Below, piece after piece: positions 31,098 through 44,322 of a DNA stretch of 64,000 bases. The stretch lies in IMG/VR virus record IMGVR_UViG_3300010396_000037. The stretch is one strand, 5' to 3'. Position numbers and translations under genes: made by a program. This DNA is from a virus. Position 1 is the stretch's first letter, and each line of letters starts with the position of its first letter. The notes below the pieces were generated by a model that made no database searches, was not told where the DNA came from, and saw nothing but the letters and a program-made list of their open reading frames with translations.

Positions 31098-31102
31098 ATT
31101 TA

Positions 31103-31185
31103 TGGCCTGAAAGCTTGTAAGTCCATGCCGAATTACAACATGGCGTTGAAAACGTAAGCGGGAGAATGGCCCGCCAAGGCAACCA
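31103..31185 (+). ncRNA. degenerate tRNA-like RNA
   Basis: 5-bp/7-nt T-like arm plus ACCA; weak acceptor stem. Confidence 0.45.
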
Positions 31186-31189
31186 AATG

Positions 31190-31287
31190 CAGTAAATGTA
31201 ACAGTGCTGGATGAACGGCTAAGTCGCCCCATTAAAGGGGAGATCCTAGGTTCGAGTCCTAGGGAATAACACTGATAACATTTGCTG
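31190..31287 (+). ncRNA. tRNA-like domain on a long closing stem
   Basis: D-like arm, CCCC/GGGG arm, CTAGG-TTCGAGT-CCTAG, no CCA. Confidence 0.6.
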
Positions 31288-31289
31288 AA

Positions 31290-31601
31290 GTCAGAGGATA
31301 ATGGATGGCCGTCCGGCATCCTCTGGCGGATCTATCTGGATCACAAGAGGGTAGCGGCACAGATAAACCGTCCTGGCGTGATCCTGTTCTTTGCTCATTG
31401 TAAGATGTAAATGAGCTATATCGGTGAGGTTTGCTGCAATCTCACACGTGACCTAAACTGGCAGCATTTAAGTAAAGTTGATGTATCTGGACCTCGAGAC
31501 GGAACATAGCAAAATCTGTGTTCAAATAGAATGACCGGATAGCGCCGGATCACGGGGTAGAACGTTACCAGATGGGAGCTGAGCATCTCATAAAACTGCT
31601 C
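31290..31601 (+). ncRNA. large pseudoknot-rich ncRNA candidate
   Basis: Multiple hairpins, two H-type pseudoknots, no credible ORF. Confidence 0.6.
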
Positions 31602-31609
31602 TTGAATTT

Positions 31610-31682
31610 GGGGCGTGAGCAGATGGCGAGCAACCGCACTGTCTATGCGGTGAAAGGGTTTCGAATACCCTACGTCCCGCCA
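31610..31682 (+). tRNA. tRNA-Asp(GTC)
   Basis: Cloverleaf, GCCA. Confidence 0.88.
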
Positions 31683-31686
31683 AATT

Positions 31687-31787
31687 GAGGTGGCACTTGT
31701 CTCTTCAGACAGAGCTCCTGAATGTGAGACAATGAGTTGGGATCAGAGAATCCGCGAACTCAACACAATTTATGTGCGCACCCGCCA
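31687..31787 (+). ncRNA. structured ncRNA candidate ending GCCA
   Basis: Three-way junction; TTGTCTC/GAGACAA and TGAGTT/AACTCA. Confidence 0.5.
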
Positions 31788-31816
31788 GCTTTTAGAGTGG
31801 TCTAGGTAGCGGCAAT

Positions 31817-31891
31817 GAACCACGACGCAGCTGGTGTGGCGGAGAGGCTTTCACCCTCTTGAGATGGGATCGAAACCCATGTGGTTCTCCA
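31817..31891 (+). tRNA. tRNA-Glu(TTC)
   Basis: Cloverleaf, CCA. Confidence 0.85.
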
Positions 31892-31980
31892 ATTTTTGTA
31901 AAAGTTGTAGTATACTTGAAAGAATTCAGTGGGCGCATCCTCGGCTCCTACAAATTGTTGCACACAGAGAATCAATTTAA

Positions 31981-32058
31981 CGGAGTGTAGCTCAGTCTGG
32001 CTAGAGCATCTGCTTTGGGAGCAGAGGGTCGCAGGTTCGAATCCTGTTTCTCCGACCA
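31981..32058 (+). tRNA. tRNA-Pro(TGG)
   Basis: Canonical cloverleaf. Confidence 0.95.
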
Positions 32059-32062
32059 ATAT

Positions 32063-32139
32063 CAGGGTATAGTTCAGTCTAGTAGAATACTCGGCCTGGA
32101 ACCGAGAGGTCGTTGGAGCGAAGCCAACTGCCCTGACCA
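32063..32139 (+). tRNA. tRNA-Pro(TGG) variant (C33, AGCG T-loop)
   Basis: Cloverleaf, CCA. Confidence 0.85.
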
Positions 32140-32225
32140 ATAAAAAAGATACAAGATAGCCGTCAACTGGGCAACTCCTTTCCCAGTTGCCTTTGAACCG
32201 GAACTTGTATTGATGGAGAAGAACT

Positions 32226-32299
32226 GGGCTGCAAGCATTAAAGTGATGCAGCGGGCCTTTAACCCGCAGAACAGAGAGCGTTACTCTGGCGGCCCACCA
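32226..32299 (+). tRNA. tRNA-Lys(TTT) variant (C33)
   Basis: Cloverleaf, CCA. Confidence 0.85.
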
Positions 32300-32323
32300 A
32301 ATATGCAGCAGAGGAGAATTGCC

Positions 32324-32560
32324 ATGAACACTTATAAGAGTCCAGCGACATATTTTTCTCCATATTCTGTTGTTTCTGGTGTGAACGCTGATATTGCTCG
32401 TCATAGAGACGCGATTAAGGATATGGAAGAAAGGCGCGAAGAGGAAATTCGGAATTCTGGATACAGTACAGATATTGCCCGTCATTATGAATTCTTTATA
32501 AGATTGGCAAAGGATAGTCTTGCAATTGTGACTGATAAAGGTCTTGGCAGAAAGAAGTAA
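32324..32560 (+). CDS. hypothetical protein
   Basis: GAGGAG RBS. Confidence 0.65.
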   Translation: MNTYKSPATYFSPYSVVSGVNADIARHRDAIKDMEERREEEIRNSGYSTDIARHYEFFIRLAKDSLAIVTDKGLGRKK

Positions 32561-32746
32561 TTTAGAGTCAGAACTGAATTTGGTGATGGGCGTTTCCCAC
32601 AAGAACCTTTCAGCAGGGGGAAACTTAAATGGCCTGTAGCCTGCCAACTCGTTTTTTTTAGTCTCGAGAAACGGGTAGTCCGTTAGCTGCTAGCCATAGC
32701 TGGCAGTTTTCTGATGGTGCAACTCCATCAATCTTTACAACGCTGT

Positions 32747-32821
32747 GGGGATTGTAGTTCAATGGTAGAATCTCCGGCTGTGAACCGGAAGACTCAAGAT
32801 CGATACTTGACTTTCCCCCCA
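32747..32821 (+). tRNA. tRNA-His(GTG)
   Basis: Cloverleaf with G-1:C73, CCA. Confidence 0.88.
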
Positions 32822-32827
32822 ATTTAT

Positions 32828-32901
32828 GGGTCTGTAGCTCAAAGGTAGAGCAGAGAGCTGTTAACTCTCCGACCAGGGATCATTACCCTGCTGGCCCGCC
32901 A
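32828..32901 (+). tRNA. tRNA-Asn(GTT)
   Basis: Cloverleaf, GCCA. Confidence 0.88.
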
Positions 32902-32905
32902 ATTT

Positions 32906-32981
32906 GGAACCGTAACTCAATTGTGTAGAGACACGCCTTTTAAGCGGAATGATGAGGGTTCGAGTCCCTCCGGTTTCACCA
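32906..32981 (+). tRNA. tRNA-Lys(TTT)
   Basis: Cloverleaf, weak anticodon stem. Confidence 0.85.
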
Positions 32982-32992
32982 GATTTATAGAA

Positions 32993-33130
32993 TGGACGTG
33001 CATAACGTCCAATAGCAGGTTGAGTCTTGAAAACTCCTTTGCCTGCGAGTTTGTCAACTGACTTGACGGAAAGTTGATGAGCGATTAGTCAATGAAATTC
33101 AACTGCGTCAACAGATGAATGAATTGACTC
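32993..33130 (+). ncRNA. four-hairpin ncRNA candidate with kissing loops
   Basis: Loops TTGACG (33063) and CGTCAA (33106) are complementary. Confidence 0.55.
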
Positions 33131-33138
33131 ATTATTTT

Positions 33139-33212
33139 GGGCTCATAGTACAATGAGAGTACACTGCGCTTGCACCGCGGAGATTAGGGTTTGATTCCCT
33201 ATGGGTCCACCA
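33139..33212 (+). tRNA. tRNA-Ala(TGC)
   Basis: G3:U70, CCA. Confidence 0.9.
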
Positions 33213-33282
33213 ATTTAACAAGCGTTAATTTTTATTTGCTGAATCAAGGTATAATTATCAATTCACATTGATGAAGAATACC

Positions 33283-33516
33283 ATGAATACGATACCTACC
33301 ACGCTTGAATCATTCAAACGATTGGTTGCAAGTTTTTGTAAGAAAGCTGCTGAATGTGATTCGTTGGAGAGTTTGGATGCTGGTTTCAAGACTGTCTCAT
33401 TAGGATATCTTGGATTGCAGAGTGATTCATCTGCGGACGCTCTGATCTCGCAATCATATCTAGAGTATGCATCAAACAGATATGCAGAAAACGAAGTTAG
33501 ATTGTTACAGAAATAA
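33283..33516 (+). CDS. hypothetical protein
   Basis: Follows promoter 33215-33255. Confidence 0.6.
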   Translation: MNTIPTTLESFKRLVASFCKKAAECDSLESLDAGFKTVSLGYLGLQSDSSADALISQSYLEYASNRYAENEVRLLQK

Positions 33517-33520
33517 ATTT

Positions 33521-33608
33521 GCCGGTGTGGTGGAATTGGTAGTCACGCTGGACTCAAAATCCAGTGCCCTCAAAAGGCGTGTCGGTTCGAGTCCGACCAT
33601 CGGTACCA
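33521..33608 (+). tRNA. tRNA-Leu(CAA)
   Basis: Canonical type II. Confidence 0.95.
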
Positions 33609-33686
33609 AATTTCATGTATCAGTCCCAGTTAATACGTTAGGCTGATTTAATTCCTAGGTCGGTGTAGGAGCATGAAAAATACAAT

Positions 33687-33776
33687 GGAGAATGAAGCAG
33701 AGCGGCCTCTGCCACCGCCTTGAAAGCGGATGGTCCGGGAAACCGGATGGTGATCGACACAGCCCGTTCTCCGCCA
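33687..33776 (+). tRNA. tRNA-Ser(TGA), 8/4 fold
   Basis: 8-bp acceptor, 6-bp D stem, long V-arm, G73. Confidence 0.85.
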
Positions 33777-33780
33777 ACTT

Positions 33781-33871
33781 GGAGGATTACCTGACGCAGT
33801 CGTCAGCATCGCCTGGAAAGCGATCGGTTCGGTGCAAACCGAATGGGAGGCGGCATCTCAATTCTCCGCCA
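33781..33871 (+). tRNA. tRNA-Ser(GGA), 8/4 fold
   Basis: GGAGGATT/AATTCTCC acceptor, 4-bp T stem. Confidence 0.85.
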
Positions 33872-33939
33872 CTTACTTTTTTGAATCTTGTGTAGTATAA
33901 TAACTGTTCTGTTCAACAACATCATTATGGAGAAGTTCT

Positions 33940-34215
33940 ATGAATCAGTCCAAACAATATTTGGTCATGCGTAAGCAACATTCTGCTGGACATAACACCC
34001 GTTTTCTGACCACCTTCGGATCATTTCGGTATAAAGCAGAACTGCAAGGTGGAGAAGAGTTCGTTATTGTTCCATATAAAAAAGCTGTCAAGTTCACAAA
34101 TGAATTCCAACAAGAAAGTTATCAAGTTGCTAAGAATCTAAAAAGGAAACTTGGCAGTGCAGGGAAGTCTTTCGGCGTCCGTCCCGATTTCTTTTTTGCT
34201 CCAAAGGAAGTCTAA
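33940..34215 (+). CDS. hypothetical protein
   Basis: TATAAT plus GGAG RBS. Confidence 0.7.
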   Translation: MNQSKQYLVMRKQHSAGHNTRFLTTFGSFRYKAELQGGEEFVIVPYKKAVKFTNEFQQESYQVAKNLKRKLGSAGKSFGVRPDFFFAPKEV

Positions 34216-34223
34216 ACAAATTC

Positions 34224-34298
34224 GGGTTGCTAACTCAACTGGTAGAGTCACGCCTCTTAAGCGGAAAGATCGGGATTCGACTTCCCGGCAACCCACCA
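34224..34298 (+). tRNA. tRNA-Lys(CTT)
   Basis: Cloverleaf, CCA. Confidence 0.88.
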
Positions 34299-34305
34299 AA
34301 TTTAT

Positions 34306-34379
34306 GGCCAGATGGCAGAGTGGTTATGCAGTCGCCTGCAAAACTTCGTACGTCGGTTCGATTCCGACTCTGGCTTCCA
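34306..34379 (+). tRNA. tRNA-Cys(GCA) with disrupted anticodon stem
   Basis: U73, CCA; stem GTCGC/ACTTC mostly unpaired. Confidence 0.8.
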
Positions 34380-34446
34380 ATTCGTTAAGCTTCTGTTAAG
34401 AATTATAGCATTATAATACCTGGTTCCACAACCACAGGACCAAATA

Positions 34447-34644
34447 GTGAAAACTCTTGAAGGCTTGTACGAAGATTGTCGTTCCTACATTGGTTTGAAT
34501 CCAGTTGAAATGACTTCAAGTGATGCACTGGCGTTGTATGCCTTTGTTGAACAGTACACAACAATGGCAAAGGTTCCGAAGGAAGTCATTGATGCTGCAC
34601 AAAAGGTGGCCAACAAATTGCAAGAGTTACACATTCAAGTATAA
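34447..34644 (+). CDS. hypothetical protein
   Basis: Promoter plus AGGA RBS. Confidence 0.6.
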   Translation: MKTLEGLYEDCRSYIGLNPVEMTSSDALALYAFVEQYTTMAKVPKEVIDAAQKVANKLQELHIQV

Positions 34645-34653
34645 ATAAATGTA

Positions 34654-34727
34654 GAGCGTGTGGTATATTGATTGTGCCACGGTCTTCCAAACCGTCGAAG
34701 CGGGTTTGATTCCCGTCATGCTCTCCA
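34654..34727 (+). tRNA. tRNA-Gly(TCC)
   Basis: Cloverleaf, U73. Confidence 0.88.
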
Positions 34728-34734
34728 AATTCGT

Positions 34735-34810
34735 GCAGGTATAGTTCAATTGGTAGAATGCTTCCTTGCCAAGGAAGTGGTTGAGGATTCGAGTTCCTCT
34801 ACCTGCTCCA
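34735..34810 (+). tRNA. tRNA-Gly(GCC)
   Basis: Cloverleaf, U73. Confidence 0.92.
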
Positions 34811-34818
34811 AGCTCCAT

Positions 34819-34894
34819 GCGGGAGTCGTCCAATATCTAAGACGCCAGTCAGCTAAAGACTGGAAATGCTGGTGAAAATCCAGCCCCTGCTCCA
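34819..34894 (+). tRNA. atypical tRNA with central CTA triplet (candidate amber suppressor, Gly-like acceptor)
   Basis: 6-bp stem CCAGTC/GACTGG, loop AG-CTA-AA, TCCA end. Confidence 0.6.
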
Positions 34895-34900
34895 AATTAT

Positions 34901-34975
34901 ATGCCGCTAGTGTTAATGGCAGCACACCAAACTCCAAATCTGGTAGTGAGGGTTCGAATCCTTCGCGGCATGCCA
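34901..34975 (+). tRNA. tRNA-Trp(CCA)
   Basis: Cloverleaf, GCCA. Confidence 0.9.
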
Positions 34976-35044
34976 AATAGCAGAGAAATTCTATGAGTAT
35001 GTGGGGATAGTTTAATTAGAACACCATTTCTGTGAGGTCATATC

Positions 35045-35278
35045 ATGAGCATAGATAAGTCTAAGGTCATCAAAATTATTGGCCCAGATTCAATGTGCTT
35101 TCAAGTGGATGCACAAACTCTTGAAGCAATCTGTTGTGAATATTATGATCCATGGGCCAAGACTCACCCAGAAGCTGGTTACAAAGAAACCATTTCATAT
35201 TTTGAATGGCTTCGCAGACTGGATGAGAGACATGAAAAAGAAAAACAAGAATTCTACCTATCGTTTAACAAGGATTAA
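35045..35278 (+). CDS. hypothetical protein
   Basis: GAGG RBS. Confidence 0.65.
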   Translation: MSIDKSKVIKIIGPDSMCFQVDAQTLEAICCEYYDPWAKTHPEAGYKETISYFEWLRRLDERHEKEKQEFYLSFNKD

Positions 35279-35297
35279 TAAATCTTTGCTGAATCAC

Positions 35298-35332
35298 AGT
35301 ATAATTACTCCTGTTGACAAACTTACTGGAGT
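35298..35332 (+). repeat. 35-bp promoter/RBS repeat, identical copy at 42238-42272
   Basis: AGTATAATTACTCCTGTTGACAAACTTACTGGAGT. Confidence 0.9.
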
Positions 35333-35337
35333 GTGTC

Positions 35338-35532
35338 ATGAAAGTTACTGTGTATCTGACTTCTGGCGCAAAGATTACACTGAAACACGTGGAGAAGTTT
35401 GATATCAAGGTCAATAGTGAAGGTGTTTGTACATCATACCAAATGAAGTCCTATGGCGATGTAGCGCTTTACATCAATCCTTTGCAAATCGTGGCGTTGG
35501 TGCGTCATCACCGTTTCCTGGGAATCTTCTGA
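35338..35532 (+). CDS. hypothetical protein
   Basis: Promoter plus GGAG RBS. Confidence 0.7.
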   Translation: MKVTVYLTSGAKITLKHVEKFDIKVNSEGVCTSYQMKSYGDVALYINPLQIVALVRHHRFLGIF

Positions 35533-35542
35533 GGAGAACACC

Positions 35543-35767
35543 ATGTCTTATGCAACTGGCTCCAAAGAAAACTTCATCACTGTGACCAAAGGAATGTCTG
35601 GCAACTTCGCCGTCATGTTCTGGTGGAATCCTGATCTTGGCGGTTTCTGGGAACCTTGGACAACTGGTTTTGGTCGTTATGAAACCCAGAAGGAAGCCAT
35701 TCAAGAAGGAATTGCATGGGCTGAAGCTGAAGAACTTGAATTTGTTGAACCATCCAAAATTGCTTAA
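35543..35767 (+). CDS. hypothetical protein
   Basis: GAGGAG RBS. Confidence 0.7.
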   Translation: MSYATGSKENFITVTKGMSGNFAVMFWWNPDLGGFWEPWTTGFGRYETQKEAIQEGIAWAEAEELEFVEPSKIA

Positions 35768-35895
35768 CCCAGAATCGCCGACTAATAGGCAGGATCTGAA
35801 GCAATTTGATGTGTAAACCACTAATGAAGTTAGGCAAATCCTGCTTCTGACCTGTGGGTATCGGAGATGAGGTTCATCCGAACATTTTTGTTGTA

Positions 35896-36107
35896 TGGTG
35901 AGCTTTGTAGGCTAAATATGCTGATGAACGCGGAGACTTAGCGGCTTGATTCTACTCGGGTGTGGCAGCATTGTAGTGCACTATGATGCAACGATTGATC
36001 ATCGTGACTGTTCGTGGGTTTGACTCCCACCATCGGCTTCTACAAAGATAGCAGTTACATGGAGTGACTGAGGGAATAACACGAGGCGCAATTGCGCGCC
36101 TACACCA
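35896..36107 (+). ncRNA. scaffolded tRNA-like RNA, copy 1
   Basis: GGTG-AG-stem-[tRNA-like 35920-36037]-stem-AACACG-AGGCG/CGCCT-A-CACC. Confidence 0.7.
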
Positions 36108-36123
36108 AAAGGAAAATAAATTT

Positions 36124-36197
36124 GCCCGGTTAGTTTAATAGTAAAATGCCTCTCTTACACGGAGGATTCGGCGGAGCGTAACCGTCACTGGGTACCA
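36124..36197 (+). tRNA. tRNA-Val(TAC)
   Basis: Cloverleaf, CCA. Confidence 0.88.
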
Positions 36198-36310
36198 ATT
36201 TTGTACATGGAGCATATATGATTACTACAGGTTGGGTCGCTAGAGCGATCATCAGTATGACTCCTGTTGTTTTAATTGGAATTTTGATTGTCTATGTTGT
36301 TTGTAATTTT

Positions 36311-36485
36311 TAGGTGAGTTCTTGAGGTAACAGAATTGACTGTGGGGGTGTAGCTCAACGTTAGAGCACTGAATGCAAGGAGTGTGGCGCGCGCGATCTC
36401 CTTTGGTTCAAGGATGGTGGTTTAACTCCGCCCATCCCCTGCTCAAGAAAACTTAACACGAGGCGTCAACACACGCCTACACCTA
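36311..36485 (+). ncRNA. scaffolded tRNA-like RNA, copy 2
   Basis: Same scaffold around tRNA-like 36344-36439. Confidence 0.7.
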
Positions 36486-36495
36486 GAAAGTTTAT

Positions 36496-36607
36496 GCGGT
36501 TGTCGGGTAAGCTGGTATCCCTCTGCATCATTTGATGCAGGCTTTAATTCCAATAAACGGTCCGTGAGGGAATTGAAGTGGTGGTTCGAATCCATCTGAC
36601 CGCGCCA
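36496..36607 (+). ncRNA. tRNA-like RNA with closed anticodon arm and ~40-nt V-arm
   Basis: Acceptor, D arm, TTCGAAT T-loop, GCCA. Confidence 0.7.
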
Positions 36608-36610
36608 AAT

Positions 36611-36687
36611 TGAATTGTTAGTTCAAAGGAAATCAAAGAACACTTCCGCGGAGGGAGGATGTGAGGTTCGACTCCTTGCACAATTCA
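36611..36687 (+). ncRNA. degenerate tRNA-like RNA (5-nt anticodon loop, no CCA)
   Basis: TGAATTGT/ACAATTCA acceptor, D and T arms. Confidence 0.6.
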
Positions 36688-36693
36688 TAAAAT

Positions 36694-36770
36694 GCCCTCG
36701 TAGCCCAATTGGTAGAGGCGTCGTCCTTAGAAGTCGAAGGTTGTCGGTTCGAATCCGACCGAGGGTACCA
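36694..36770 (+). tRNA. tRNA-Leu(TAG), short variable loop
   Basis: Cloverleaf, A73. Confidence 0.88.
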
Positions 36771-36778
36771 AGTTTAAA

Positions 36779-37104
36779 GTAGCATGTTGTAAGATGTAAT
36801 TTTGTGGCTGATAAGGTACGTTCTTCGGTATCAAGGCACGCTGCACATTACAGTGGTATGGAATCACAGGAAGGATAAATCCGATTTGACCGCAGTGAAC
36901 AACTAATGTCACTCCTGCGGAGGTTGCGAAGTCAGTGTTAAACCCACATATACTGAGAAGAAGCTGACTTGTGAGTGAAATCCTCACCAAAGCGTTGAAA
37001 AATGGTTCGCGACTGTTTGGAGCTTTGTAGATAAATAATCCAACTTGTGATGAAGTTGTTGGGGGTTCAGATCCCTACCAAAATTACATCTTAGAACATG
37101 TTGC
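36779..37104 (+). ncRNA. ~325-nt structured RNA closed by a ~25-bp stem
   Basis: GCATGTTGTAAGATGTAATTTTG / CAAAATTACATCTTAGAACATGT. Confidence 0.7.
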
Positions 37105-37285
37105 AGTCTGCACCAGTGCAGACCAACAAGGCTTGAGTCTAGAGCAATATGTGCTTTTAACGTTTCGTTAACTCGCTTCATAGTATAATAGTCGTTTCCG
37201 CCGTGAGGAATGTCAATGCAGACTCTTGACTCTGTCTTCAGGCAAGGCTTGAAGTTGAGAAGTTGTTGGAAAAGATCAAAGAAGA

Positions 37286-37357
37286 GGCTGTCGGTCTAGA
37301 GACCAAGCGGGTTTCATAAACCCACTGAGATTGGAGCGTAACCAATGTCAGCCACCA
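37286..37357 (+). tRNA. tRNA-Met(CAT)-like with minimal D arm
   Basis: Loop TT-CAT-AA, T arm, ACCA. Confidence 0.65.
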
Positions 37358-37359
37358 GT

Positions 37360-37434
37360 GCTGTTATAGTTCAAATGATAGAACGGTGGTTTCGTACTCC
37401 ACAGAAGAGGGTTTGATTCCTTCTAACAGCACCA
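37360..37434 (+). tRNA. tRNA-Thr(CGT)
   Basis: Cloverleaf, CCA. Confidence 0.88.
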
Positions 37435-37441
37435 AAGTTTC

Positions 37442-37515
37442 GCTCCTATAGTTAAGTGGCATAACAGTTGCCTTGTAAGCATCTATCCTCTGTTCGATTC
37501 GGAGTGGGAGCACCA
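37442..37515 (+). tRNA. tRNA-Thr(TGT)
   Basis: Cloverleaf, CCA. Confidence 0.88.
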
Positions 37516-37520
37516 ATTTA

Positions 37521-37560
37521 TCCTCAGAGAGCCTGCTAGTGTGGGCGGTCGGCTGTTCAA
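37521..37560 (+). pseudogene. 5' half of a tRNA-Asn(GTT), truncated at the anticodon loop
   Basis: TCCTCAG acceptor strand, D arm GCC/GGC, GTCGG-CT-GTT. Confidence 0.6.
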
Positions 37561-37575
37561 ACACTAAATATATTC

Positions 37576-38238
37576 ATGGAATGTAAATATTGCAACAAGT
37601 CGTTTATCAATAAACAAAAACTAGCAAGTCATGAGAGCAACTCTGCTTGCAATCCTAACAAAACGATTTACTGTGCCCACTGCAAGTTTTGCGGTAGAAA
37701 TTGCTCTCATCTAAATGGCTTACGTTCTCACGAAATCACTTGTATAAACAATCCAAACAGAGTTAAGGGTAAGAGAGGCGATGGTTGGTACAAAGTAGAT
37801 AAAACTGCATTTTCTAAAAAATTGAGCGAACGTTACAGAAGTCATGAAACGAACAAATTGATAAGCGCGACATGTTTAGCAAAAGCGAAATCTGGTAATT
37901 GGCATCATGGCGCCGGCAAAAGTAAAAAATACACATACAAAGGATACAAATTCGACTCTACTTGGGAAGTACAACTTGCTATTTACTGGGATTCGAAAGA
38001 AATAAATTGGATTAGAAATTCCGAAACATTTCCTTACTTCTGGAACAAAAAGAACAGATCTTACACTCCCGATTTTCTTTTACCAAACTCAAATACGTAC
38101 ATAGAAGTCAAAGGATACAAAACAGAAAGAGACATTGCAAAATGGTCTTCTTTCCCTGGTAGACTTCAAATATTTGATGAAAGGATTTTGAAGGATATGG
38201 GAGTTCTAAAAATTTCTACGTCTGTAGCTCAAAGGTAG
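37576..38238 (+). CDS. Zn-finger plus PD-(D/E)XK (TnsA-like) free-standing endonuclease
   Basis: Two C2HC fingers; DSTWE, YTPDF, YIEVKGY; late promoter TAAATA at 37565. Confidence 0.85.
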   Translation: MECKYCNKSFINKQKLASHESNSACNPNKTIYCAHCKFCGRNCSHLNGLRSHEITCINNPNRVKGKRGDGWYKVDKTAFSKKLSERYRSHETNKLISATCLAKAKSGNWHHGAGKSKKYTYKGYKFDSTWEVQLAIYWDSKEINWIRNSETFPYFWNKKNRSYTPDFLLPNSNTYIEVKGYKTERDIAKWSSFPGRLQIFDERILKDMGVLKISTSVAQR

Positions 38239-38291
38239 AGCACGGGGCTGATAACCTCGCGACAGTGGATCGTTCCCACTCAGACGTACCA
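38218..38291 (+). tRNA. tRNA-Ile(GAT)
   Basis: Cloverleaf, CCA; overlaps endonuclease stop. Confidence 0.88.
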
Positions 38292-38368
38292 ATTTAATAT
38301 TCCTTAATTTTTGAATACTGAATCAGGGTATAATAACTTCATAGCGATCAGTTCGCTTCCAAATTTAG

Positions 38369-38506
38369 GCGCGGGTCATCCAATGCTAGGATCCTTCTCA
38401 TGGAGTTGGGAAAGATTGTGCACAATCTTCCTGATCAAGAGAGAGGGCAATGTGTAATACAAGGCGATATCCTTGTATTTTGGTTCAAATCCCACTCCGT
38501 GCTCCA
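38369..38506 (+). ncRNA. giant tRNA-like RNA with Gly-like acceptor
   Basis: GCGCGGG/TCCGTGC-TCCA, D arm, long anticodon-position hairpin, extra hairpin at the T stem. Confidence 0.7.
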
Positions 38507-38522
38507 ATTTGAGGATGCAACA

Positions 38523-38708
38523 ATGAAGACCAAGCTTGAACGCGATTCGTATAAACGCCACCACGAGTCTGGCACCAAGATAATTTGCGCTCATTGTGGA
38601 AAAGAATTTCTGGCCGGGGACTTAGGTCTGTTGAGCATGGCAATCAACAATCACAAACCCGCTTGTTCCTATGAATGCAATAAGGCATTAGGTCAGGTAA
38701 GTGAATAA
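38523..38708 (+). CDS. small zinc-finger protein
   Basis: CAHCG...CSYEC; GAGG RBS. Confidence 0.7.
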   Translation: MKTKLERDSYKRHHESGTKIICAHCGKEFLAGDLGLLSMAINNHKPACSYECNKALGQVSE

Positions 38709-38757
38709 CATGTCATCTAAGCTAGTTATTTGAATTGAAACAAACCATAATAACAAT

Positions 38758-38832
38758 AGCGATCAGGTAGTCAAGCGACTATGCCAGCCCCATAAGCTGG
38801 AGAGCACGGCGCAATTCCGTGGTTCGCTACCA
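38758..38832 (+). tRNA. tRNA-Met(CAT) variant (6-bp D stem)
   Basis: Cloverleaf, ACCA. Confidence 0.8.
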
Positions 38833-38836
38833 ATTT

Positions 38837-38962
38837 GGGATGCTAGTTTAATGGTAGAACGGTTGGTGCGCTGTGCTGAAAGTGCGTACTAGGCGCAGTT
38901 CATCAGCAAATGCGTAAAGCACTTATGGATGAGTACTGGTTCGAATCCCGCGCATCCCATCA
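38837..38962 (+). ncRNA. tRNA-like RNA with expanded anticodon and variable arms
   Basis: GGGATGC/GCATCCC, canonical D arm, GGTTCGAATCC. Confidence 0.7.
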
Positions 38963-38974
38963 CAAGTTTAACAT

Positions 38975-39049
38975 GCGGTTGTAGCTCAATGGATAGAGCA
39001 TCAGTTTCCGAAGCTGAAGACATAGGCTCGAATCCTATCAGCCGCTCCA
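38975..39049 (+). tRNA. tRNA-Arg(CCG)
   Basis: Cloverleaf, A20, CCA. Confidence 0.9.
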
Positions 39050-39062
39050 ATTGGACACCAAC

Positions 39063-39245
39063 ATGAAATTTGAATTGACAATCACTTTAACCTATGATGT
39101 TGATCCTGAGGATTATGCTGAAGATCAGTCTCCACAAGAAATGGTTGATTCAGACGTCGCTGCAGCTGATGATAGTCCTGAATCCTTTCTTGCTGCCGCT
39201 TGGCCTTACCAATGCAAGGTCACTGGCAAAGTTTTAGAAGAATAA
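39063..39245 (+). CDS. acidic hypothetical protein
   Basis: ORF between tRNAs. Confidence 0.6.
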   Translation: MKFELTITLTYDVDPEDYAEDQSPQEMVDSDVAAADDSPESFLAAAWPYQCKVTGKVLEE

Positions 39246-39247
39246 AT

Positions 39248-39321
39248 GCTCCTGTAGTTAAATGGCAGAACACCACTTTGGTAAAGTGGTAACAACAGTT
39301 CGATTCTGTTCTGGAGCACCA
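39248..39321 (+). tRNA. tRNA-Thr(GGT)
   Basis: Cloverleaf, CCA. Confidence 0.9.
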
Positions 39322-39322
39322 T

Positions 39323-39397
39323 GATCCATTCGACCAGTGGCTAAGTCGTCTCCCTCTCAAGGAGGGGAACCGGGATCGAAACCCGGATGGATCACCA
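39323..39397 (+). tRNA. tRNA-Glu(CTC)
   Basis: Cloverleaf, CCA. Confidence 0.88.
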
Positions 39398-39404
39398 AAA
39401 ATAT

Positions 39405-39487
39405 GCGGCTGTAACCGAGGGGAGCTTCTACCTCCTTACACGTAACTGGAGTTGAGAATGCGGGTTCGAATCCTGCCAGCCGCGCCA
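39405..39487 (+). tRNA. rearranged tRNA-Arg(TCT), no D arm at the normal position
   Basis: Perfect acceptor and T arm; anticodon arm follows TAACC; GTAACTGGAG lies after the anticodon arm. Confidence 0.75.
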
Positions 39488-39492
39488 ATTTT

Positions 39493-39569
39493 GCCCATGT
39501 AGCTCAATTGAATAGAGCAGTCCTTTCCTAGGGGAATGGTTGGGAGTTTGAGTCTCTCCATGGGCGCCA
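39493..39569 (+). tRNA. tRNA-Arg(CCT)
   Basis: Cloverleaf, GCCA. Confidence 0.88.
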
Positions 39570-39586
39570 AATAAAAAGGTATTCAC

Positions 39587-39778
39587 ATGAGCATAAGTTC
39601 ATCCCGAACACCAGAAGAGGCTCTTCTAGAATGTGATAGACTGATAACTTACTATCAATCTGTTATGAATGCATCTATTGTATCTGATCTAAATCCTACA
39701 GCTGCGCGTGATCTTTTATATTCTGCGATTGCTGTGAAGAGAGACATTCAATTAAGAATCAGAAATAATTCTAACTGA
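39587..39778 (+). CDS. hypothetical protein
   Basis: AAGG RBS. Confidence 0.6.
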   Translation: MSISSSRTPEEALLECDRLITYYQSVMNASIVSDLNPTAARDLLYSAIAVKRDIQLRIRNNSN

Positions 39779-39856
39779 CATTTATCACTCGTTAATAAAT
39801 CTTTAGTGAATTACGGTATAATAATTCCTGTTGAATCAACTCTACTGGAGAATATC

Positions 39857-40180
39857 ATGGACACGCATGCTCAAGTCGTTAAAGCTATGCAGCAACTTTT
39901 GAAGAATCCTGACTTGTGTGTGAACGTATGCTGGGAAATAGCAGCTAACTGCCCAGTCTATTTTCTTCAAGCTGTTGATGAAGTATGCCCAGATATCAAA
40001 GAAGCATCATTACCCTTGGTCGAAAGAGTGCGCAAATTAGCTTACTCACTTCCCCGTTCCGACTCCAGCGTAGGCAAGGTTGAGTTCATCAAAGCCCATC
40101 GCCAATTGACAAAGATGGGGTTAAAAGAATCAAAAGACTGGGTAGAAGCCAACTGGGCTGAATTTGGTCCACGCTGTTAA
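39857..40180 (+). CDS. protein with ribosomal L7/L12 C-terminal-like domain
   Basis: KVEFIKAHRQLTKMGLKESKDWVE matches K...IK..R..T..GLKE.KD.VE. Confidence 0.7.
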   Translation: MDTHAQVVKAMQQLLKNPDLCVNVCWEIAANCPVYFLQAVDEVCPDIKEASLPLVERVRKLAYSLPRSDSSVGKVEFIKAHRQLTKMGLKESKDWVEANWAEFGPRC

Positions 40181-40218
40181 AAAGCAATAAATGACTTCAG
40201 TTCTTCAATGATTGATTT

Positions 40219-40361
40219 GAAACTTGGCGGCGTGGAGAGTAGACACGCACTTGCATGCAGGAGTGGCCTGCCACCGGGAGCCCTATTTAAGATTCACTGG
40301 CGGATCGTACCCACGACAATAATCAAAACGCGCAGTTGGAGTAACGCCCAACCCAAGTTTC
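40219..40361 (+). ncRNA. tRNA-shaped ncRNA candidate
   Basis: GAAACTTGG/CCAAGTTTC stem, GCGTG/CACGC and GTTGG/CCAAC arms, T-run after. Confidence 0.6.
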
Positions 40362-40379
40362 CCTTTTTTGGAACCAATC

Positions 40380-40677
40380 ATGAATAATATGAAAATTCGC
40401 TATCATAAGGAAGATGTAGATCAAACCATTAAATGAATCAAGCAATACAATCCATATTACGACTCTAGACAAGCGAAATGGTCAGATGACGCTATCCGGA
40501 AGTCTATTATGGATAGCATTGAGATAATGCGTGACTCAGAAGTGCCGTGGACTTCAACCATGGGGTATGTGATTTTTTAAATGTTTTGATGATGAAGAAG
40601 GTTTCATTGATGTAGAGATCGCGATGAATTGCAATTTGCCTCGCAATATAATCCAAGAACCCATTATTTTGAGCTGA
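40380..40677 (+). pseudogene. disrupted hypothetical gene
   Basis: In-frame TGA at 40434 and apparent frameshift at T6 near 40573. Confidence 0.5.
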
Positions 40678-40679
40678 TC

Positions 40680-40892
40680 ATGAATACTATTGAATTAACT
40701 CCAGAGTTCATTGATGCTGTGAGTGCAGGTGCTAGTGCACTTGTAACTATGGCAGAAGAACTTCAGAGAAATGAACATTACAACGAAGACGGCCCAATCG
40801 GAGAATTGGTTCGAAAAACTGTTGAAAGCAACTATCAAAAAGTTGACCTCTTGAGAGGTTGGCTGGTACGAATTGAAGGAAAAGAAAAGTAA
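40680..40892 (+). CDS. hypothetical protein
   Basis: ORF in operon. Confidence 0.65.
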   Translation: MNTIELTPEFIDAVSAGASALVTMAEELQRNEHYNEDGPIGELVRKTVESNYQKVDLLRGWLVRIEGKEK

Positions 40893-41296
40893 TGAGAGCT
40901 TATACAATTGTTAATATGTACATGCAGGGCATTCATGCCGGCATTCAAAGTGCGCATATCTTGTCTGAAATGGCGTTGGATTCTGCAAGCAAACCAGATC
41001 ATAAATCTGCTGCGACTTTCTACAGTTGGGCAACGAACGACAAGACTCTCATTGTACTGAATGGCGGTAGCAACAAAAATCTTCGCAAGATGATGGATTT
41101 GATTGAACCTGCTTGCGATAAGCTTGATTTGCCTTTCGCTTACTTCACTGAATCAGAAGAAGCTTTGGATGGGGCATTGACTGGATTTGGATTGATTGTT
41201 CCGTCAAGGATCTATGAATCTGGTGTCGCTAATGACTACCGCACTTCTGAAAACAGTATTTCAAGTTGCCTAAATTTGCTTCAATTAGCGCGATAA
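40892..41296 (+). CDS. Pth2-like (peptidyl-tRNA hydrolase II fold) protein
   Basis: G..AGIQSAH...W....KT.IVL.GG...F.E...L...T..G pattern. Confidence 0.6.
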   Translation: MRAYTIVNMYMQGIHAGIQSAHILSEMALDSASKPDHKSAATFYSWATNDKTLIVLNGGSNKNLRKMMDLIEPACDKLDLPFAYFTESEEALDGALTGFGLIVPSRIYESGVANDYRTSENSISSCLNLLQLAR

Positions 41297-41303
41297 TAAA
41301 TTT

Positions 41304-41397
41304 GGTCCTGTAGTGTAATTGGAAGCACCGACTGCCTTATAAACAGTGAGCGCCAGATTAGCGCCGAGCGTGGGTTCGATTCCCACTGGGACCACCA
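41304..41397 (+). tRNA. tRNA-Ile(TAT) with long variable arm
   Basis: Loop CT-TAT-AA, GCGC/GCGC V-arm, ACCA. Confidence 0.8.
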
Positions 41398-41413
41398 ATT
41401 TTAGGAATATATT

Positions 41414-41620
41414 ATGTCACATCATCATTCCTTCAATACACAACCACGCAAGCGCATGCGTCAAAAGGACGCATTGATGCGCTGGAAGTGGCGGTTGAGC
41501 AAAAAGGGACAATTATCGAACAAGCTCACAGATGAACAGGAACGTTCATTTTGTTCAGCTGCTATTGAAATCTGCAAACAACAGATCGCCTTTATCGAAG
41601 CCAAAGGCATAACAGCTTAA
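41414..41620 (+). CDS. basic hypothetical protein
   Basis: AGGA RBS. Confidence 0.6.
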   Translation: MSHHHSFNTQPRKRMRQKDALMRWKWRLSKKGQLSNKLTDEQERSFCSAAIEICKQQIAFIEAKGITA

Positions 41621-41626
41621 ATTCTT

Positions 41627-41703
<77 letters not shown>

Positions 41704-41711
41704 AATAGGAA

Positions 41712-41993
41712 ATGATTATGGAGATTAACGCTGTTATTACAACTGCAGAACATCGCACTGTAGATATACGTGTTGAAGATGTATTTGAAATATTCTGGAG
41801 AAAGATCATTAACAAGTTTGGTGTACCAGCAAAAGCATACATAAATTTAGACGGCATGTGGGAAACTTGGGAAGACACAGGTCACGGTTCAGGCATATAT
41901 GATACTATCCGGAAGGCAACACCAGAAGAAGTGAGTGTGGTTGGCGCATTTGCAAAAATGCGTGAGTTTATTAGGGATAAATATGAACGCTGA
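41712..41993 (+). CDS. hypothetical protein
   Basis: HGSG...IRKAT.EE motif; RBS. Confidence 0.65.
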   Translation: MIMEINAVITTAEHRTVDIRVEDVFEIFWRKIINKFGVPAKAYINLDGMWETWEDTGHGSGIYDTIRKATPEEVSVVGAFAKMREFIRDKYER

Positions 41994-42201
41994 AGATAAT
42001 TTGCTTGATAATATTGACTATCTAAAACAGAAGTTGAATGAAGCAAGGGAAGAATTGGAACGGATGAAGAACAATATCAAAAATGCTCAACCAGTGACAG
42101 TCAATTCCCTGAATTACATGAAAGACGTCCTAGAAGGTTATTACGAAATTGGCATTGGCCGCTATCCAAAACCCAATTACGTGTTTTTGCATGTTGACTG
42201 A
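41983..42201 (+). CDS. hypothetical protein
   Basis: ORF in operon. Confidence 0.6.
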   Translation: MNAEDNLLDNIDYLKQKLNEAREELERMKNNIKNAQPVTVNSLNYMKDVLEGYYEIGIGRYPKPNYVFLHVD

Positions 42202-42277
42202 CGTTTAACTTAGATTAAGTTATCTTACTTAAAATGTAGTATAATTACTCCTGTTGACAAACTTACTGGAGTACGTC

Positions 42278-42631
42278 ATGAACATCAATCGTTGGAAAAT
42301 CAAGGATTTCAAAGAAGCCGAAAAGGTTGCTGAGAAGTTGACTGAGGAAACGTTGGTGCGCCATGTCGCAGTTGATGCGGGCTCAAATGTTTTTCCACGC
42401 TTTGGTGCTATTCGCGTACCACAAGTTGGTGATGCTGTCAGTTATGCTTTCAATGGTGACTATTATCCTGATGGCTACATCGCCTCCGTTTCCAGTGGAG
42501 TCAAGATGGTTATCAAGACTTCTAAAGGCCACGTGTATTATCGCCACTTGAAGACTGGCTGTTGGATCATGAAAGGTGGCACATGGCGTTTGGTCGATGG
42601 CCATCGTAGCGAATTGAATCCCAGTTTCTGA
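42278..42631 (+). CDS. hypothetical protein (SH3-like C-half)
   Basis: Promoter 42205-42245 plus RBS; P.VGD.VSY.FNGDYYP..LNPSF. Confidence 0.75.
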   Translation: MNINRWKIKDFKEAEKVAEKLTEETLVRHVAVDAGSNVFPRFGAIRVPQVGDAVSYAFNGDYYPDGYIASVSSGVKMVIKTSKGHVYYRHLKTGCWIMKGGTWRLVDGHRSELNPSF

Positions 42632-42653
42632 GAATAGAAGTAAGGAGAGCAAT

Positions 42654-42827
42654 GTGTTAGCCGAAGCCAGTTATCCATACCAAGATTGGGAGACTGAAGT
42701 CTTGCAAGATTTTCCCAATGCTGAATTCACTGACAATGATGCAATCGCCGTGGTGAATGGGGTTGAAACTCTTGTTTCGACGTATTATCCGCATCAAAAC
42801 TTTGCTCGTTGGTGGCTGGAGAAATGA
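42654..42827 (+). CDS. hypothetical protein
   Basis: GTG start, AAGGAG RBS, 57 aa. Confidence 0.55.
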   Translation: MLAEASYPYQDWETEVLQDFPNAEFTDNDAIAVVNGVETLVSTYYPHQNFARWWLEK

Positions 42828-42828
42828 C

Positions 42829-43047
42829 ATGTATGACTCTATCTACACTCACAGAGAACGCACAGTAGCCAATCATACAATTGGCGAAGCTCTTGAAAGT
42901 GCAAAACGCAGGCTGATTGAAAAGGATTTTGGTGGCTATTTCTGTGTTGATTCAATTAGCAATCGTTCCTTGCATGACAAAATCACTCTGGAAGAGCTAA
43001 ATAACATTGCTGAAAGAATAGTGGAAGATAGCTTGTATTATGACTGA
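42829..43047 (+). CDS. hypothetical protein
   Basis: GGAG RBS. Confidence 0.6.
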   Translation: MYDSIYTHRERTVANHTIGEALESAKRRLIEKDFGGYFCVDSISNRSLHDKITLEELNNIAERIVEDSLYYD

Positions 43048-43055
43048 TGATATGT

Positions 43056-43129
43056 TGGGGATTAGTTCAATGGTAGAATAGATGGCTCTGAACCATCAGA
43101 CAGCAGATCGATACTGCTATCCCCTGCCA
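43056..43129 (+). tRNA. tRNA-Gln(CTG)
   Basis: Cloverleaf, GCCA. Confidence 0.9.
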
Positions 43130-43295
43130 TTTATGGAGCTGAGATAATGAATTACAAGTTATATCTTCTGCTGTGTGCTGTATCTGGTTTAAATTGTGGA
43201 TTTTTATCCACTCTCTTGCTACATCAATAATCGTCAATTTAATCATTTGTGGTTTGTTGAGCGCAGTTTACTTGGTATGCAAGGAAAATTAATCT

Positions 43296-43376
43296 ACCCG
43301 TGTAACCAGCATCGCTACGAACGATGACTAAGGTAATTGGAGGCAGATGCAGGTTCGAATCCTGTCGCGGGTGCCA
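43296..43376 (+). tRNA. rearranged tRNA-Arg(ACG), no D arm at the normal position
   Basis: Acceptor, TAACC, CATCG-CTACGAA-CGATG, GGTAATTGGAG, canonical T arm, GCCA. Confidence 0.78.
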
Positions 43377-43392
43377 ATTTTAGGGTTTGATT

Positions 43393-43632
43393 ATGGAACA
43401 CGACCCTAACAAAGCTATAGATAACGTCGTCAAAGTCATTGATGATCATCTTCCAATTTTATGTAAAGAAATGTTACAATTTGAAGATGATAGAGGCAAA
43501 GGCTTGCGCATGATTTACTGCGAGCAATTGTTAGCTGACGCAGGCATGAGTAATTACAATGCTCAAGTGATAGTGCAAAATTTAATCAGACACGCAGCTG
43601 TCAAGAGAATTTGCAAAGAATTTGAAGAGTAA
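43393..43632 (+). CDS. hypothetical protein
   Basis: ORF. Confidence 0.6.
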   Translation: MEHDPNKAIDNVVKVIDDHLPILCKEMLQFEDDRGKGLRMIYCEQLLADAGMSNYNAQVIVQNLIRHAAVKRICKEFEE

Positions 43633-43635
43633 ACT

Positions 43636-43866
43636 ATGAACAATCTAGAAGAAGCTTTTCAAGACATCAAATTTTTAAATAATATACGAACGAAGTTTCA
43701 ATCTGGCAACGAAATTCCTGTTACGGAAGCATGTATTACAAGACAAGAATGGGAAGCTGTTGATCGCATTCTTAAAGCACAAGCAAGAGATTTAGCTGTT
43801 TTGGAGAGTAAGCTAGACTTAAAAAATTGGAGAGTGAATTGGGCTGGGCCCAAGGTGGTTTGCTAA
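43636..43866 (+). CDS. hypothetical protein (KFQSGN.IPV motif); 3' end runs into tRNA-Ser
   Basis: ORF; true stop uncertain (A6 run). Confidence 0.6.
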   Translation: MNNLEEAFQDIKFLNNIRTKFQSGNEIPVTEACITRQEWEAVDRILKAQARDLAVLESKLDLKNWRVNWAGPKVVC

Positions 43867-43919
43867 ACCATTCGTTCGGTGAAGAACCGAATCGGGATCG
43901 TAACCTGCTCTCTCCGCCA
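43829..43919 (+). tRNA. tRNA-Ser(GCT), 8/4 fold
   Basis: GGAGAGTG/CTCTCTCC acceptor, CGGG/CCTG T stem. Confidence 0.85.
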
Positions 43920-44017
43920 TCTGGTACACTTTATGAAAATTTCTAAATAACTCGAACAAGATTGTTTGAGTAGAAACTACAAAGTTGAAGTGAAATTGAC
44001 TAAGAAATGAATTATAT

Positions 44018-44105
44018 GCCCATGTGGTGGAATCGGTAGTCACGGCGGACTTAAAATCCGCTGCTCTAATAAAGCGTGTCGGTTCGAGTCCGACCATGGG
44101 CACCA
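44018..44105 (+). tRNA. tRNA-Leu(TAA)
   Basis: Canonical type II. Confidence 0.95.
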
Positions 44106-44125
44106 AATAATTATGGAGCAATATC

Positions 44126-44317
44126 ATGAAGACGACTGAAGATATTATTCTTGAAAACGTAGAGAAAGCTATCAAAGACTACAATGACGTACCTAAGCAC
44201 ACTAGCAACAAACTTCTTTATCGGTGGTATGCGTTTGGAGTAATTTCTTCAGCTTTCACTTCTTTACATTTTCCTTCACATGAATATTACAGTTATCTTG
44301 AACGCATAAATATATAG
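44126..44317 (+). CDS. hypothetical protein
   Basis: GGAG RBS. Confidence 0.6.
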   Translation: MKTTEDIILENVEKAIKDYNDVPKHTSNKLLYRWYAFGVISSAFTSLHFPSHEYYSYLERINI

Positions 44318-44322
44318 AATGA

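Follow-up and report, generated by a model that had tools for sequence, protein, structure and literature searches.

Phage tRNA clusters are usually read as aids to codon usage or as spare parts against tRNA-cutting defences, and the locus considered here raises the question of what tRNA-shaped genes without an anticodon loop are doing in such a cluster. The locus is a tRNA island of 13.5 kilobases (kb) at ~31000-44500 of the 64,000-nucleotide (nt) stretch that we analysed at its full length (the window; IMG/VR virus record IMGVR_UViG_3300010396_000037), which comes from a large soil phage contig, and it holds ~35 tRNA genes, all on the + strand. Interspersed among ordinary tRNA genes and interleaved with small open reading frames (ORFs) lie four elements, E1 to E4, each with a 7-base-pair (bp) acceptor stem, a D arm and a T arm, and none with a 7-nt anticodon loop. 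An initial annotation, made from the letters of the sequence, had described them as tRNA shells with intact elbow and acceptor but rebuilt anticodon and variable arms, and all four, with the arms described, are indeed found in the sequence. With somewhat better than even confidence, we regard E1-E4 as genuine genes for stable, tRNA-shaped, non-decoding RNAs. Because related phages keep their shapes through compensating mutations, we take them to be working RNAs rather than decayed tRNA genes, and the island would then hold several selected RNAs that have the outline of a tRNA and have given up decoding. The elements and their parts are as follows.

36496-36607, + strand: E1, 112 nt, with a 7-bp acceptor, a D arm with GG, a normal T arm, G73 and an encoded CCA.
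36522-36541, + strand: anticodon hairpin of E1, with a stem of 7-8 bp and a 4-nt loop.
36541-36579, + strand: variable arm of E1, ~38 nt, a 10-bp stem plus cap.
36612-36687, + strand: E2, with a 7-bp acceptor, a D loop of 13 nt, an anticodon hairpin closed by the 5-nt loop GCGGA and a 6-bp T stem, without CCA.
38369-38506, + strand: E3, with acceptor 38369-38375/38496-38502, D arm 38378-38392 and rod 38393-38447 (55 nt).
38452-38454 (GTG), 38455-38481 (insert, 27 nt, a 9-bp hairpin) and 38482-38483 (GG), + strand: split T stem of E3.
38484-38490, + strand: T loop of E3, with U73 and CCA at 38504-38506, read from the sequence.
38837-38962, + strand: E4, with acceptor 38837-38843/38952-38958, D arm 38846-38860 and rod 38862-38907 (46 nt).
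38912-38914 (GCG), 38915-38937 (inserted hairpin, 23 nt) and 38938-38939 (GG), + strand: split T stem of E4.
38940-38946, + strand: T loop of E4, with A73 and TCA at the 3' end, read from the sequence.

Standard tools mostly pass over these elements. ARAGORN at default settings calls none of the four; against the Rfam tRNA model RF00005, with its threshold of 29 bits, E4 passes marginally (29.8 bits), E2 reaches 14.9 bits and E3 gives no match, and the sole Rfam match of E1 is to tRNA-Sec at 14.8 bits. Identification of E1 as a selenocysteine tRNA was rejected given that score and the lack of a UCA loop. With E3 in addition mis-called within a protein gene, there is an annotation gap here that a covariance model would help to close in phage genomes. 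The T loops nonetheless follow TTCRANY, as in canonical tRNAs, the GG of the D loop is present in E1, E2 and E4 (not in E3), and the arms are two to four times as long as those of a normal tRNA. Given the T arm, shuffled upstream sequences offer a 7/7 acceptor and a 4-bp D stem at the right offset in 0.7-2.3% of trials. Fold z-scores are -3.6 for E1, -1.9 for E2, -2.6 for E3 and -1.6 for E4, and none of 200 shuffles of E1 was equally stable.

What carries the argument is comparison with related phages, which we reached through homologues of the small island ORFs in a large protein collection and then through the contigs that encode them. One of these, L031, is the same phage (99.97% identity, with zero differences inside the elements). 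L055 is a 74-99% relative over window positions 35276-39767, and L056 and L057 are identical to it across the E4 region; L036 carries a compact syntenic island, L061, L062 and L063 represent two further lineages, and T4-type replication genes are present in the relative L034, in keeping with a T4-like phage.

E4 provides the fullest test. Its orthologues in L055 (3071-3214, 144 nt) and L063 (2813-2953, 141 nt) share an identical plan with every helix kept, and both follow the Met-type tRNA that also precedes E4 in the window:

38758-38832, + strand: unusual Met(CAT)-type tRNA directly upstream of E4, and its conserved neighbour in L055 and L063.

The plan, which is common to E3 and E4, leads from the acceptor and the D arm through a closed rod in place of the anticodon arm and four unpaired bases to a split T stem, in which 3 bp and 2 bp stand around an inserted hairpin (GYG, hairpin, GG, opposite CC-CRC) and a standard T loop follows. 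It is the 5' strand of the T stem that is interrupted, after its third base pair and before its fourth. Read as contiguous, the T stems of E3 and E4 form 3 of 5 pairs; read as split, they form 5 of 5, with a middle pair that is U-A in E3 and C-G in E4. For the window copies of E3 and E4, imposing this plan on the fold costs 2.4-2.8 kcal/mol relative to the unconstrained optimum. In a shell alignment of E4, its L055 and L063 orthologues and E3, all 64 of 64 cells pair and 8 of 16 pairs have changed on both sides, values that none of 500 shuffles reached, and partners slid by 1-3 columns pair in 47-59%. Between the window and L055 the rods and T-stem hairpins are nearly unalignable in sequence and differ in length, and are still helices; comparison of the L055 with the L063 copy adds three double changes, of which two are in the rod and the third is in the T-stem hairpin. 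The 3' ends also differ, being G-CCA in the L055 and L063 copies and A-TCA in the window copy; an encoded CCA is found in E1, in E3 and in those two copies of E4, and not in E2 or in the window E4. In the L055 and L063 copies the T-stem hairpin (L055:3160-3195, L063:2900-2930) is capped by a second T-loop-like sequence, GGTTCGAAAC, which is not in the window copy.

E1 and E2 both have orthologues in L055, and across the two elements each stem change is pairing-neutral, four compensatory double changes included. The orthologue of E1 (L055:1484-1598, 115 nt) is identical in acceptor, T arm, G73 and CCA, and its variable arm differs at two positions, one of which makes a U.G into a C-G pair. The anticodon hairpin has several changes and is still closed, with one C-G to A-U double change and an outer U.G that has become C-G; its loop, of 4 nt in the window copy, has 5 nt in L055. 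Run over 393 kb of phage tRNA islands, a covariance model derived from E1 (R3) found no more copies, and class II Leu(UAG)-type tRNAs came next in score; R3 served as a homology probe only, as misplaced gaps in the MAFFT alignment led RNAalifold to mispair the 5' part of its structure. A search for the parent isotype of each shell among 501 canonical tRNAs was uninformative, except that E1 gave a weak signal for class II Leu(UAG) tRNAs.

For E2, the L055 orthologue (1603-1674) shows three double and four one-sided changes, with all pairs kept (those of the anticodon hairpin in a shifted register). Pairs 1-72 and 2-71 have been exchanged, from G-C and A-U in the window to A-U and G-C in L055, the sixth T-stem pair has gone from G-C to A-U, and three other T-stem pairs have changed on one side and still pair. 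The D loop is 4 nt shorter in L055, and the hairpin loop GCGGA is invariant. In the register that we scored, one anticodon-stem cell of L055 is unpaired; with a shift of one position (CTYCC against GGGAG), pairing is complete in both and the loop has 5 nt. The two-sequence alignment is 98% paired, against 41-61% for slid controls, and the shuffle control (59 of 500) is powerless with two sequences.

To judge from these substitutions, the shapes of E1, E2 and E4 are maintained by selection in related phages. The initial annotation had proposed non-decoding tRNA mimics rather than products of random decay and had staked this on structural conservation of the inserts in relatives; that conservation was looked for and is present in E1, E2 and E4, where covariation retains the helices. 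Its grouping of the four shells as one family did not hold. There are three kinds of RNA, E3 and E4 together, which have the split T stem, and E1 and E2, both without it, each of its own kind. Its idea of aptamer-like arms is not supported for E4, in which loops and sequence have been almost wholly replaced and only the pairing is kept; the arms of E1, by contrast, are nearly invariant and could be sequence-specific.

E3 belongs to a segment that the relatives do not have. Together with an ORF of 61 amino acids it occupies window positions 38352-38755, which have no counterpart in L055, L036, L061 or L063; in L055 the flanks of the segment join directly, with overlapping alignment ends. The 11-mer ATAGCGATCAG, which is the start of the Met-type tRNA, recurs at 38757 and so brackets the insertion of E3 and the ORF, and directly after its first copy comes the apparent 3' end of a deleted tRNA copy. 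E3 is most simply seen, on account of the common T-stem junction, as a lineage-specific addition and a diverged paralogue of E4. The features around it are these.

38288-38334, + strand: promoter-like repeat copy of family D10, a TGCTGAAT box followed by GGTATAAT, 35 nt upstream of E3.
38342-38364, + strand: relic minihelix, the first 11 nt and last ~12 nt of a Met-type tRNA copy, including ATAGCGATCAG.
38523-38708, + strand: zinc-ribbon-like ORF of 61 amino acids, with GAGGA 8 nt before the ATG at 38523, in the same inserted segment as E3.

Public gene calls give this ORF as a 102-amino-acid reading (38400-38708) that starts inside E3. We rejected that reading: the conserved part of the protein begins past 38523, where the ORF has its own GAGGA, and homologues match residues ~20-60 of the 61 only. 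The element at 38288-38334 is 94% conserved in L055, where it directly precedes the Met-type tRNA and E4, and is a putative promoter; its repeat family, D10, has four copies and overlaps families D8 and D16. More broadly, an element of 45-80 nt (TTAAT..., a TGCTGAAT-like box, then GGTATAAT) is present at 30730-30778, 33209-33255, 35259-35342, 38288-38334, 39776-39859 and 42202-42282, preceding RNA and ORF units across the island. Its layout resembles that of a T4 middle promoter (a MotA-box-like motif plus a -10), and a simple sigma-70 scan misses its copies.

The split-T design extends beyond this phage. As split-T we counted shells with acceptor and D arm in which GYG...GG pairs with CC-CRC around a 23-34 nt hairpin between the third and fourth pair, a definition that among the four elements picks out E3 and E4 only. 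A covariance model of this shell, R1 (by construction E3 and E4 score 120 and 115 bits with it), found a 149-nt member at L028:6028-6176 in the 157-kb phage G003, at 30.7 bits and with one U.U mismatch in the acceptor, which our first regular-expression finder had missed by demanding 7/7 acceptor pairs. Pattern scans of IMG/VR and a metagenome collection, followed by inspection and the filtering out of ordinary tRNAs, added at least four more:

L082: split-T member of 174 nt.
L077/L204: split-T member on a 176-kb contig.
L223: split-T member on a 152-kb contig.
L227: split-T member of 169 nt.

tRNA islands surround four of the five new members (L028, L082, L223 and L227), and those of L082 and L223 are on the tRNA strand; in the 3.9-kb stretch of L077 ARAGORN calls one tRNA. 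A tRNA-like gene of 108 nt at ~1818-1925 of L258 (metagenome contig SDBV01036751.1) shares the split T stem and its inserted hairpin with E3 and E4 and has an ordinary 5-bp anticodon stem with the 7-nt loop CATTTAA (A at position 33); no other tRNA is called on this 5.5-kb contig. At the position of E4, L036 has a different 86-nt shell (2825-2909) with a TCCA tail and without a proper anticodon arm.

How such RNAs might be made and used can be sketched from the parts that they keep. In their predicted folds, the elements retain what tRNA processing and handling enzymes read, namely an acceptor stacked on the T arm and a D loop able to dock on the T loop. They would be co-transcribed with the neighbouring tRNAs from the island promoters, released, as tRNAs are, by RNase P and 3' trimming, and would accumulate as small stable RNAs, much as species 1 and 2 RNAs of the T4 cluster do. 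The closed anticodon end, reinforced in E3 and E4 by an arm on the T stem at the grip site of EF-Tu, would exclude them from translation. Their role is the most tentative step: the tRNA-like top half might occupy or recruit a protein that recognises tRNA shape, candidates being a processing, repair, modification or defence factor. The initial annotation had suggested nuclease decoys. Against anticodon nucleases this is unlikely, as the elements lack the loop that such enzymes cut; factors that recognise the acceptor and elbow are a possible target of a decoy.

A bolder version of this idea, to which we give little credence, is that split-T RNAs are a widespread and undescribed class of phage tRNA mimics, matured and CCA-tailed, excluded from EF-Tu and the ribosome, which would sequester a host factor by which the acceptor end or elbow of tRNAs is attacked or sensed; the target may be, for example, a toxin that modifies the acceptor end or a defence system that senses tRNAs. 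If true, this would be counter-defence by tRNA shape and not by tRNA supply.

Several observations weigh against seeing in E1-E4 non-decoding RNAs with a role of their own. E1 and E2 have an orthologue in one lineage each (L055) and E3 in none. Turnover is fast: at the equivalent position in L061 and L063 E1 and E2 are missing, tRNA-Leu(UAG) there directly following the upstream RNA; L061/L062 have no E4, their Met-type tRNA lying directly against tRNA-Arg; and none of the relatives has E3. The discriminator of the E4 family varies (A, G and G, with U in E3) and its CCA is patchy, which makes a charging-dependent role doubtful and, as far as the aligned copies go, argues against one fixed synthetase identity for the family. 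L258 has a split T stem yet also a 7-nt anticodon-type loop, so that the T-stem arm is not strictly tied to the loss of decoding. That the E3/E4 arm would block EF-Tu, finally, draws on the general pattern of EF-Tu contacts with the T stem.

Of the rival explanations the one that survives best, itself improbable, would make the shells processing punctuation, with the tRNA-like part as a handle for RNase P and the rod as a handle for RNase III, so that the long island transcript is cut, the ends of adjacent mRNAs and RNAs are fixed and the released RNA has no role. E3 suits this well, ending 17 nt before the ORF start at 38523 within the same inserted segment, as do the interleaving of shells with small ORFs and the fact that RNase III cuts T4 species 1 RNA in vitro. 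Such cut sites are, however, already offered by the ordinary tRNAs on either side, the neighbours of E1, E2 and E4 are tRNAs and not mRNAs, and the D arm, the elbow bases and the whole variable arm of E1 are conserved beyond what a cleavage handle needs.

Much less probable is that E1-E4 are decaying, functionless tRNA pseudogenes in which insertions and slippage destroyed the anticodon and variable regions. Broken tRNAs do exist in the island (a half of an Ile(GAT) tRNA at 37521-37555 and the relic minihelix described above), the elements come and go among close lineages, and neither E2 nor the window E4 has a CCA. Covariation, however, largely refutes decay: compensatory changes retain all shell helices in E1, E2 and E4, all stem substitutions in E2 preserve pairing, the rods are still paired despite replacement of their sequence, and the unusual T-stem junction recurs in distant phages, all in contrast with the truly broken Ile(GAT) tRNA in the same stretch.

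We give no greater chance to the explanation that these are intron-bearing genes, the inserts being removed after transcription to yield ordinary decoding tRNAs, although RNA-repair-type enzymes are encoded near the island (an RNA ligase and a phosphoesterase in relatives) and ARAGORN can be made to call tRNAs over E1, E3 and E4 by lowering its threshold and permitting introns. The anticodons so forced are inconsistent and sit on poor stems. E1 and E2 offer nothing to excise, their short, conserved hairpins having loops of 4-5 nt; the E3/E4 rod is a continuous helix that with its top removed still leaves no 7-nt loop; and two excisions would be required, one within the T stem. No group I intron or ribozyme family was matched in Rfam at permissive thresholds, and the inserts, at 20-55 nt, are much too small for a group I intron. 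Their removal by splicing is unlikely. Insertion into tRNA genes of small mobile hairpins like miniature inverted-repeat transposable elements is barely credible, for although the inserts are hairpins and the E3 segment is bracketed by an 11-nt direct repeat, no insert recurs in the 64-kb window beyond chance words of 10-11 nt, orthologous inserts occupy the same structural site with unrelated sequence and different lengths, and the 11-nt repeat marks where a duplicated tRNA gene begins, not where an element ends.

If E1-E4 are, as we favour, non-decoding RNAs in their own right, their closest counterparts are in the T4 tRNA cluster, in which species 1 RNA (rnaC, 139 nt) and species 2 RNA (rnaD, 119 nt) adjoin tRNA-Arg and the segB endonuclease gene. 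The roles of these two RNAs are unknown (PMC3014915, PMC12685909). When aligned across four genera (Tequatrovirus, Kanagawavirus, Moonvirus and Karamvirus; L033:1409-1547, L058, L059 and L060), rnaC shows 13 covarying pairs. Its fold consists of an acceptor-like stem, in which two U.U mismatches are conserved, and of a long rod, a hairpin of 10 bp and a canonical T arm. Karamvirus rnaC has had its rod replaced and its shell retained, the same evolutionary pattern as that of E4. Of the 748 phage records that contain rnaC, most leave it unannotated or place a 'hypothetical protein' call over it.

Like the elements, rnaC lies on the tRNA strand in the tRNA cluster of a T4-type phage, beside a homing endonuclease gene, rnaC and rnaD are 119-139 nt long, and in rnaC an acceptor-like stem stacked on the T arm encloses a rod and a hairpin just before the T arm. 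Unlike them, rnaC is without D arm and CCA, and it has two U.U mismatches in the terminal stem and an unbroken T stem, whereas E1-E4 all have a D arm and a fully paired acceptor and E3 and E4 have a split T stem. BLAST finds no sequence similarity between the elements and rnaC, and R1, the E4-family model, does not match it. With a covariance model of rnaC, E3 scores 17.2 bits, the best non-self match in 127 kb, with a rough E-value of 0.03, and E1, E2 and E4 score at most 6 bits. By analogy, the elements may work like T4 species 1 RNA without being members of the rnaC family, homology not being demonstrated. Set beside rnaC, tRNA-like shells of unexplained role are already known and the split T stem would be the undescribed structural design; it had no match in the searchable literature nor in any Rfam model. 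The elements reopen, with new and structurally distinct examples, the ~50-year-old question of what purpose the small stable RNAs of the T4 tRNA cluster serve.

Other known RNAs match the elements in part. Canonical and class II tRNAs (RF00005) share the 7-bp acceptor, the D arm and the T arm, and a CCA is encoded in most tRNAs of the island, but they have a 5-bp anticodon stem and a 7-nt loop where E1 has 4 nt, E2 has 5 nt and E3 and E4 have rods with small caps. In the tRNA-like domain of transfer-messenger RNA (tmRNA), too, a long helix replaces the anticodon arm below an acceptor and a T arm, and G3.U70, the alanine identity pair used by tmRNA, is found in E3, whose acceptor begins with G1-C72, C2-G71 and G3.U70 and ends in U73 and CCA; the pair is not found in E4 or its orthologues. 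A tmRNA has a tag reading frame and pseudoknots, whereas the elements have neither and possess a complete D arm. No tmRNA was called on E1-E4 by ARAGORN or Rfam, homologues of the downstream protein do not conserve the open frame that runs through E3, and the phage has a permuted tmRNA at 9517-9919 (ARAGORN, Rfam).

The Y RNA-like YrlA (RF02553) also joins a non-decoding tRNA-like module to a long helix and is sometimes phage-encoded, but its topology is reversed: the elements end at the acceptor, whereas YrlA ends at the far end of the long helix and its acceptor-like stem is closed. The only YrlA-type Rfam match in the island, at 39459-39518, scores 23 bits against a 69-bit threshold and lies outside the elements. 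Closer to home, 'rewired' tRNA-Arg genes of the same island and phage group are likewise non-cloverleaf and missed by gene finders, but have a normal anticodon loop and look like working tRNAs. In G003, rewired Arg genes and a split-T member occur in one phage; in BLAST searches, E1-E4 had no match in three 160-kb phages with rewired Arg tRNAs.

Other routes to relatives yielded little. BLAST of the region against 50,697 isolate phages gave 0 matches in near mode and ordinary tRNAs only in distant mode, and a protein-anchored IMG/VR search with three island ORFs returned phages without a syntenic island (L001-L008). The single IMG/VR match of a strict junction pattern was an ordinary tRNA-Ser, a Met-type tRNA pattern had zero matches in IMG/VR and the metagenome collection, and a tRNA-Ile pattern led to 15 tRNA islands, none with orthologues of the elements. 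The 90% protein clusters of eight island ORFs held identical copies only and hence no relatives of 90-99% identity for comparison.

The island holds further odd RNAs, among them a fifth shell just upstream of E1:

36344-36440, + strand: E0, with an extended anticodon rod and the T loop TTTAACT, without CCA.

A look-alike of E0, a shell with a GC-rich palindromic rod, is present at ~L036:1655-1745. The broken tRNA at 37521-37555 is the 5' half of an Ile(GAT) tRNA, intact in its counterpart at L055:2857-2933, which has been cut inside the anticodon loop by a cassette with a 220-amino-acid zinc-finger/endonuclease I-like ORF (37576-38238). A second, different tRNA-Ile(GAT) at 38218-38291 overlaps the end of this ORF, and the arrangement as a whole (37521-38291) suggests a homing endonuclease that supplies a tRNA of its own to replace the one it breaks. 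The window tRNA with anticodon UAG (36694-36770) is 77 nt long with a short variable region and its orthologue at L055:1938-2025 is an 88-nt class II tRNA; the long variable arm was apparently gained or lost as these close lineages diverged. L032, a more distant phage of 163 kb, has 36 tRNAs in 16.5 kb and its own shells of 135-179 nt (5902-6036, 7714-7892, 7901-8058 and 11125-11296), which combine good acceptor and T arms with large rebuilt middles and have tails that include GCCA and ACCA.

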